A stretch of DNA of 64,000 nucleotides, from NCBI GenBank assembly GCA_041666045.1, contig JBAYHR010000002.1, forward strand, positions 18,773-82,772, given 5' to 3'. The position numbers were made by a program, and so were the translations under genes. Origin of the DNA: Minisyncoccota bacterium. GTDB taxonomy: Bacteria; Patescibacteriota; Minisyncoccia; Phycocordibacterales; UBA9973. Of this stretch, positions 48,181-48,261 are shown piece after piece (positions within the stretch are counted from its first letter, which is position 1; the number at the start of each line of letters is the position of its first letter). The notes below the pieces were generated by a model, which had not been told where the DNA came from, made no database searches, and was given only the letters and a program-made list of their open reading frames with translations.

Positions 48181-48261
48181 AAAAAACAAGAAGTAAAAGT
48201 TTTCTGGCAAGCAAGACGAAGCCAGTGCTTGCAGGCGAAAACTTTTACTTCTTGTTTTTTT
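48181..48261. repeat. Structured element copy B: 23-bp perfect AT-rich stem enclosing the core ctggcaagcaagacgaagccagtgcttgcaggcg, with T-runs on both sides
   Basis: Read directly from the sequence. The core matches 16502-16535 at 29 of 34 positions. Differences are pairwise compensatory. Confidence 0.8.

Follow-up and report, generated by a model that had tools for sequence, protein, structure and literature searches.

A conserved-core palindromic repeat of Minisyncoccia genomes, probably mobile and doubling as a putative terminator hairpin

A review of MITEs has brought together the in-frame insertions of the Rickettsia palindromic elements (RPE), a terminator-like repeat named SPRITE, nested elements and the inversion of Correia elements (PMC10969869). 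The RPEs are small palindromes of a reduced, AT-rich genome that lie between genes as well as in frame within unrelated housekeeping proteins, where they occupy tolerated surface positions; several families coexist and none encodes a transposase (PMC10969869). They are 100-150 bp in length, are conserved over their full length, belong to the Alphaproteobacteria and have no reported terminator layout. SPRITE is a dispersed repeat with a body composed of a terminator-like hairpin and a T tract, whose copies cluster and insert into one another (PMC10969869). Correia elements and related MITEs are short, non-coding and multicopy, possess inverted termini, affect the transcription of their neighbours and can invert in place (PMC10969869). 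Classical MITEs have conserved terminal inverted repeats, target-site duplications and a parent insertion sequence. The REP and REPIN elements are GC-rich imperfect palindromes of ~35 nt located at gene ends, and fold better on one strand, with G.T pairs tolerated. These elements act as single-stranded DNA and are mobilised by RAYTs, which are Y1/HUH transposases. In REPINs the stems are conserved and the loops are variable.

The genomes of CPR bacteria (Patescibacteria) are tiny and are generally regarded as streamlined, with little mobile DNA. No description of elements such as those reported here was found in the literature on CPR bacteria. The DNA analysed, referred to below as the window, is a 64-kb stretch of a Minisyncoccota genome. 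A covariance-model search finds exactly two copies of the repeat family (family 1) in the window, copy A and copy B.

Copy B is a complete palindromic element of 84 bp (48179-48262, no strand assigned) in which an AT-rich perfect inverted repeat surrounds a GC-rich centre, giving a 26-nt arm, a 32-nt core and a second 26-nt arm. The inverted-repeat scan places the arms at 48179-48204 and 48237-48262, each 26 nt long, 100% complementary and with a spacing of 32 nt. The left arm consists of a T, an A7 tract, the variable middle CAAGAAG and the conserved inner arm TAAAAGTTTTC. The right arm mirrors it and ends in a T7 tract followed by an A. The GC-rich core, taken as the 34 nt from 48204 to 48237, reads CTGGCAAGCAAGACGAAGCCAGTGCTTGCAGGCG on the top strand and CGCCUGCAAGCACUGGCUUCGUCUUGCUUGCCAG on the bottom strand. 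An inner 7-bp helix (48207-48232), for which there is covariation, is formed within the core by the pairing of 48207-48213 with 48226-48232. This helix encloses an apical region of 12 nt that on the bottom strand holds a 3-bp mini-helix (GGC/GUC) and a UUC loop. The 103-nt stretch containing copy B (48170-48272) folds at -41.9 kcal/mol on the + strand (z-score -9.1) and at -43.5 kcal/mol on the - strand (z-score -11.7); the hairpins of the two copies give z-scores of -6.5 to -11.7 against shuffled sequence. Covariance model R1 scores copy B at 84.9 bits on the - strand. The initial annotation had described a 23-bp perfect AT stem with T-runs on both sides. The perfection of the stem stands and its length does not, as the perfect stem measures 26 bp. 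On the + strand a run of seven A lies 5′ and a run of seven T lies 3′, so that a T-run follows the hairpin on each strand, as had been described.

Copy A (16479-16558, no strand assigned) scores 88.6 bits under the covariance model. Its arms (16479-16502 and 16535-16558) are 24 nt long, 100% complementary and spaced by 32 nt. The copy begins within the TAA that ends the comEC N-terminal gene (14975-16480), and a Lactamase_B gene (16590) lies 31 nt downstream. It may be noted that copy A stands where comEC is split (window 14975-17459), its DUF4131 and Competence domains being in one ORF and Lactamase_B in another. The cores of the two copies, 48204-48237 and 16502-16535, differ at five positions (GGA to AAG, CC to TT) and align as CTGGC(GGA/AAG)CAAGACGAAGCCAGTGC(CC/TT)GCAGGCG. 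A recount of the earlier figure for core identity gave the same 29 of 34 positions, and with the covariance-model matches to both copies this bears out the identification of copy B as a second copy of a conserved-core hairpin element. The core differences leave the 7-bp inner helix paired. They had been called compensatory, and this holds for two true pairs (G-C to A-U in each case); at the third an A.C mismatch is replaced by G-C. The stems of the two copies had been regarded as different, which is correct for the middle of the arms and incorrect for the inner 9-12 bp and the outer A/T tracts, which are family-wide. The window contains two occurrences of the 16-mer AAGACGAAGCCAGTGC, where 0.13 would be expected by chance, and none of 100 shuffles had as many.

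Through pattern scans, locus scans and protein-guided look-ups the family reaches 27 copies, of which 26 are distinct. Among genome_contigs, a set of one-genome-per-species contigs, the pattern CTGGCNNNCAAGACGAAGCCAG identifies three true loci, of which a Minisyncoccia MAG holds two and a Nomurabacteria MAG the third. A further five matches to this pattern fall on contigs of 41-70% GC, have no flanking hairpin and look like chance. A pattern that leaves the helix unconstrained yields 19 more copies in metagenome contigs of 26-37% GC. The host contigs of the family have ~30% GC and derive from Minisyncoccia/Nomurabacteria, and the family is restricted to a clade of these CPR bacteria. Copy B does not represent a signal peculiar to ftsK. 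Viral contigs, phages and plasmids gave no match to the family-1 pattern. The copy number looks low, at two per 64 kb here and only two pattern matches in the Minisyncoccia MAG. A six-frame peptide query of the protein database returned only five matches, which pointed to insertions in TsaE. As most copies came from patterns that fix 20 core bases, the invariance of the core is partly an ascertainment effect; the less biased copies found through proteins show core variation, with CAAAACG, GCTGG and GCCC variants and one decayed copy. Locus L019 holds two family-1 copies with identical arms in direct orientation 1.7 kb apart (1609-1692 and 3300-3381). One of the two has the loop variant CAAAACG, and a recent local duplication is possible.

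The family element spans ~80-95 bp. Five layers can be distinguished: first an A tract on the outside, then an AT-rich arm with a fast-evolving middle, the conserved inner arm AAAWNTTTTC, the conserved 34-nt GC-rich core, which is an imperfect hairpin, and lastly a mirrored arm that closes in a T tract. The intergenic copies all follow the order of A tract, variable middle of 8-13 nt, (T)AYAAAWN-TTTTC, core and mirror with T tract. TTTTC is invariant, the preceding AAA is nearly invariant and few intergenic copies lack the outer A tract. Conservation across the family covers the core and the inner arm, with the mid-arm variable yet complementary. The arms diverge and yet remain complementary, their pairs comprising 483 Watson–Crick, 3 G.U, 12 A.C and 20 others.

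The inner 7-bp helix exists in the variants GCGGACA/UGCCCGC, GCAAGCA/UGCUUGC, GUAAGCA/UGCUUAC, GCGAACA/UGUUCGC, GUGGACA/UGUCCAC and GCGGCCA/UGGCCGC, with G-C, A-U, U-A and G.U pairs and one C-G pair. Across the 27 copies 11 pairs have changed on both sides, and none of 500 shuffles matches the observed values. When partners are slid as a control, pairing falls to 35-55%. On the bottom strand 97.4-97.5% of cells are paired, compared with 87.8% on the top strand, the corresponding values being 99.2-99.5% and 83.0% in the inner helices. The better fold of the bottom strand results from three conserved positions at which it has G.U pairs and the top strand has A.C mismatches, and the sporadic mismatches in the arms mostly show the same bias. 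The core loops hardly vary. A pseudoknot of CUGGC/GCCAG alongside the 7-bp helix was considered and rejected, as the two share bases and leave no linker nucleotides, and covariation backs the 7-bp helix only.

Most of the intergenic copies border a stop codon and have A/T tracts on each side. In nine copies the left arm abuts the stop codon of a gene on the same strand, in ~6 copies the right arm abuts that of a gene on the opposite strand, and one copy is located directly 3′ of a tRNA. As the A and T tracts are symmetric, each strand presents a hairpin followed by a U tract. This arrangement of hairpin, A tract and T tract matches the window's ordinary bidirectional terminators (inverted repeats I13, I18 and I24). 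The simple terminator scan, which has a loop limit of 8 nt, does not call the element sites. Copy B has the stable hairpin and the U tract of an intrinsic terminator, with T7 after the stem on each strand. Copy A and ~15 others also stand where a transcription unit ends; copy B does not. Judged from their anatomy, the gene-end copies are putative bidirectional Rho-independent terminators. Intragenic copies tend to be without T tracts.

The surroundings of copy B differ from this arrangement. It lies in the divergent region upstream of ftsK, as first annotated: its left neighbour (45913-48138, - strand) is confirmed as FtsK by the Pfam domains FtsK_SpoIIIE, FtsK_alpha, FtsK_gamma and FtsK_4TM, the ftsK ATG is 41 nt from the element, and copy B is flanked by two gene starts. 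The right-hand gene (48336-49223) most likely starts at 48336, directly past a promoter-like site, TTGCCT-16-TATAAT (48301-48328, + strand), which is outside the element and conserved in the orthologous locus L008. With this start, the ORFs 48106-48327 and 48225-49223, which cross copy B, are artefacts, in agreement with the earlier view of them as spurious. The GTG start at 48225 chosen by the ORF caller falls within element B. With the TATAAT reaching to 48328 and a conserved ATG at 48336, the right-hand gene appears to be leaderless. A second promoter-like site, TTAACA-18-TATTAT, is found close upstream of copy B on the + strand, with a spacing that is not preserved in L008. A stand-alone small RNA was rejected on account of this lost spacing and of a bottom strand without a conserved promoter. 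Since copy B and its orthologue in L008 stand between two gene starts, they terminate neither neighbour. Copy B is most likely a tolerated insertion kept since the common ancestor with L008, and it could act as an insulator of the two divergent promoters.

The element has also been found in frame within two proteins. In TsaE, a comparison with the insert-free protein of L030 reveals it as a 24-aa insertion in a loop between NSPTFVIMKKY and FHxDAYRL. Among the 45 closest homologues in the set examined, 29 carry the element in the main frame, one of these being decayed, and one carries it in a second frame. The core is inverted in three, a truncated remnant is present in one, seven have inserts of other GC-rich repeats and four have no insert. 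The covariation of the helix is visible in the protein as coupled residues (D..P/S, N..F/S and S..L). The core can flip in place between its arms, an inversion that was confirmed in the DNA of L034 and L035 against L011, where the arms are homologous. In the AlphaFold model of an insert-bearing TsaE the pLDDT is ~52 at residues 81-100 compared with 76-94 elsewhere, and the predicted structure fits a tolerated loop.

In PolA, the linker between the 5′-nuclease and polymerase domains of L001 and L013 contains the element, read as FLADKTKPVPAGEN (...NFLADKTKPVPAGEN...), with the T tract absent. Homologous PolA linkers are hypervariable. Those of L029 and L030 hold the core of a different repeat, termed type 2, in an equivalent hairpin at the same place, and in the polA gene of L013 the family-1 hairpin is found beside the leftover 3′ half of a type-2 element. 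In this linker the cores and the arms seem to assort independently of each other. The PolA linker of L011 (reverse complement, 5635-5835) holds, instead of family 1, a palindrome with 13-bp arms, CTGGCGATTCTTC...GAAGAATCGCCAG, around a 66-nt core. The start of this core (CTGGCGA..CCAG..CGCA) resembles a decayed family-1 core. The insertions in TsaE and PolA are unlikely to be assembly chimeras, since they recur in many independent assemblies.

Comparison of orthologous sites has indicated both retention and turnover. Copy B is retained in L008, copy A in L020, and the copy of L001 in L013, and in each case the arms differ by paired changes. As these orthologous copies have common diverged arms, it is the whole hairpin and not the core alone that is inherited as a unit. 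In L020, part of the right arm is missing and a superoxide dismutase gene has been inserted convergently, directly behind the core. At other sites the element has been gained, lost or replaced between related genomes. L014 carries the element and the orthologous site of L028 has a small terminator only; L023 and L026 have the element after recA, where the window has a different GC-rich repeat. The type-2 hairpin of the window (45472-45556) is absent from L008, which has a 31-nt stretch with a small hairpin there. The indel consists of the whole hairpin including its arms at L014/L028, at window/L008 and at the TsaE sites. Insertion of the core into the loop of a pre-existing terminator, with the old stem kept, is not supported, because the arms are part of the indel. 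A right arm made as a fresh inverted copy of the left flank was also considered and is not claimed, as the matches are short and AT-rich. There is suggestive similarity between the L014 arm and the L028 flank, and PolA arms are common to different cores. No clear target-site duplication was seen in L014 against L028 or in the TsaE gene of L011 against L030, comparisons in which the flanking sequence has diverged and is rich in A and T. Even old orthologous insertions have kept the core far better than the arms, which would also fit a functional constraint on the core.

When set against the described systems, the element shares with the RPEs the small palindrome, the reduced AT-rich genome, the mixture of intergenic and in-frame sites in unrelated housekeeping proteins, the coexisting families and the lack of an encoded transposase. 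The tolerated protein positions are in this case the TsaE loop and the PolA linker. The CPR element differs from the RPEs in its length of ~85 bp, in the conservation of the core and inner arm only, in its hypervariable complementary arms and in a mostly terminator-like character. The resemblance is one of behaviour and not of membership, as the phylum is different; homology to the RPE families is not expected, and no Rickettsia sequences turned up among the family scans. With SPRITE the element has in common the dispersed terminator-like hairpin with its T tract, and the nesting of family 1 and type 2 in the polA gene of L013 compares with mutual insertion; the phylum and the sequence are different. 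We know of no in-frame protein insertions of SPRITE, nor of a layout with conserved core and variable arms. The family agrees with the MITEs in being small (<~300 bp), non-coding and multicopy, at 84 bp with two copies in the window and 27 in all. It departs from them in that terminal repeats are not conserved among copies, with only the inner 9-12 bp and the A/T tracts in common and arms that differ greatly, and in that no parent insertion sequence or transposase with matching ends accompanies it.

The core resembles the REP elements in being a GC-rich imperfect palindrome that folds better on one strand and is found at gene ends. The GTAG head of REPs is replaced on the complementary strand by GCAGG in 24 of 27 copies, with GTAGG only in L001, GCGGG in L034 and GCTGG in L036. 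The conserved stems and variable loops of REPINs are the reverse of what is seen in the CPR element. RAYT-like Y1 transposase genes (PF01797) are present in L032 (1337-1963), L011 (5583-6233) and L019 (5631-6146), and REP/RAYT systems thus exist in these CPR genomes. Each of these Y1_Tnp genes is bordered, in a REPtron-like manner, by short GC-rich hairpins of its own (TACGGAGGCGTTGCCTCCGTA, TGTGAGGTCTTGCCTCACA or TGTGCAAAGTCGAACTTTGCACA) and not by the family-1 core. A link between family 1 and RAYT was rejected, given that the hairpins at the three loci are different. The 64-kb window contains no RAYT-like gene, no transposase is adjacent to any copy, and no mobilising gene of any kind could be linked with the family.

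Family 1 is accompanied by other repeats. The type-2 sister element (45472-45556, no strand assigned) has 27-nt AT arms, a TTTTC...GAAAA junction and a 31-nt GC-rich core, TCGGGTCCTCGGCCTGGGTCCAGACCAGCTC. It is the same phenomenon and not family 1, as the architecture is alike and the GC-rich core is different. Its relatives are located at 4417-4476 in L013 and, in frame, in the L029 and L030 PolA linkers. The window also has three copies (39382-39483, 40010-40111 and 44329-44413) of a third family of GC-rich repeats, with the hairpins CCCCTCCTTG..GGAGGAGGGG and ACCACCCCCAACCCCCTCCTT..AGGAGGGGAG. Peptides resembling the translation of this third family (PPTPLL.KGEG, PLPRGSA..) fill the same TsaE loop in other CPR genomes. 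The perfect palindrome AATCAAAAAATCCCCCAA|TTGGGGGATTTTTTGATT occurs twice in the window (42399-42434 and 43656-43689), and both sites look like strong bidirectional terminators or another small repeat.

The element is probably a non-autonomous mobile palindromic repeat, similar to the RPEs, MITEs and SPRITE, that doubles as a putative terminator hairpin. It occupies unrelated sites, namely gene ends, a tRNA end, a divergent promoter region, the TsaE loop and the PolA linker. These sites, together with the recurrent loop insertions, nesting, presence or absence between relatives, flipping and no gene-tied function, fit a mobile or selfish repeat. The current proposal is that non-autonomous selfish or mobile DNA of the RPE, MITE or REP kind would have spread through these genomes, and that the gene-end copies may have been retained because a long hairpin with a U tract on either strand would serve as a bidirectional terminator. 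The matching of the arms may be upheld by templated correction from one arm to the other, by selection for pairing, or by both. Flipping could arise through recombination between the inverted arms. The bias towards the bottom strand suggests a strand-specific single-stranded intermediate, and the hairpin relevant to spread would be that of the bottom strand, probably as single-stranded DNA recognised in trans by a putative enzyme.

The strongest rival, although an unlikely one, is that the bottom strand encodes a functional structured RNA, whether a small RNA, a cis-acting motif or a protein-binding motif. Copy B would then be part of the ftsK leader, on the sense strand and 41 nt before the ATG, acting for example as an attenuator or stability element. 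Such an RNA would account for the strong covariation, the clearly better bottom-strand fold with G.U where the top strand has A.C, the near-invariant core loops, the U tract after the bottom-strand hairpin and the retention of both copy B and its L008 orthologue upstream of ftsK. However, much of the asymmetry of G.U pairs resides at three inherited positions and hence reflects few independent events. The element is located at unrelated genes, chiefly at their 3′ ends, and the bottom strand of the copies within the TsaE and PolA coding sequences is antisense. Both orientations are found at one TsaE site, close relatives differ in presence or absence, and neither strand has a conserved promoter at a fixed distance. 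A terminator hairpin in the ftsK leader would also silence an essential gene. No Rfam family matches the element. At the gathering threshold there are no matches across the 64-kb window, tRNA included, and 138 kb of related loci give nothing but tRNA and rRNA; permissive E-values bring up just generic long-hairpin models (miRNA, plastid 3′UTR), far under their thresholds. Set beside the consensus sequences of guanidine-III, hammerhead, twister, pistol, HDV, SRP and k-turn RNAs, the core appears to fit none.

It is less probable still that the copies are ordinary intrinsic terminators that evolved in place, sharing an apical module through common descent or gene conversion without any mobility. 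The hairpin with a T tract on both strands, the ~15 copies in which a stop codon abuts the arm and the A tract-stem-T tract layout of the other terminators of the window (I13, I18 and I24) would all be expected of such terminators. Nonetheless, copy B lies between two gene starts, and other copies reside within the reading frames of TsaE and PolA. Moreover, different GC-core families are found in the same TsaE loop and PolA linker across genomes, which requires insertion events and not evolution in place.

Least probable is a site recognised at the DNA level, such as an uptake sequence, an Xer/dif-like or other recombination site, or a nucleoid-protein site on a cruciform: arms that are nearly all Watson–Crick (483, with 3 G.U) would be expected of a DNA palindrome, copy A lies between comEC parts and copy B beside ftsK, and CPR bacteria rely on DNA uptake, but an uptake sequence would have to be far denser than two copies per 64 kb, the majority of copies are unconnected with comEC or ftsK, protein-loop copies in two orientations are unexpected for such a site and the core is not a two-arm dif-like palindrome.

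The mobile, terminator-like repeat thus remains the preferred reading. A bolder version of it, to which we give only a small chance, goes beyond a passive MITE-like repeat and regards the 34-nt core as the active module of an undescribed mobility system, or as a CPR-specific protein-binding RNA or DNA motif. In the case of mobility, the hairpin would spread as single-stranded DNA, carry or regenerate locus-specific arms, flip, and swap between hairpins.

These elements have several consequences for CPR genomes. Gene ends are sites of turnover for three or more families of GC-rich palindromic repeats. Repeated in-frame insertion in the essential proteins TsaE and PolA means that selfish DNA in coding genes is not a rickettsial oddity. 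The elements yield spurious ORFs and wrong start codons, as at 48106 and 48225, and lengthen annotated proteins by 24-28 residues. As far as the sequence can indicate, they probably provide many of the transcription terminators in these genomes. Their presence or absence and their orientation could act as strain-level markers. The combination of a conserved core with variable arms, inversion in place and a strand-specific fold frames the question of how the element moves.
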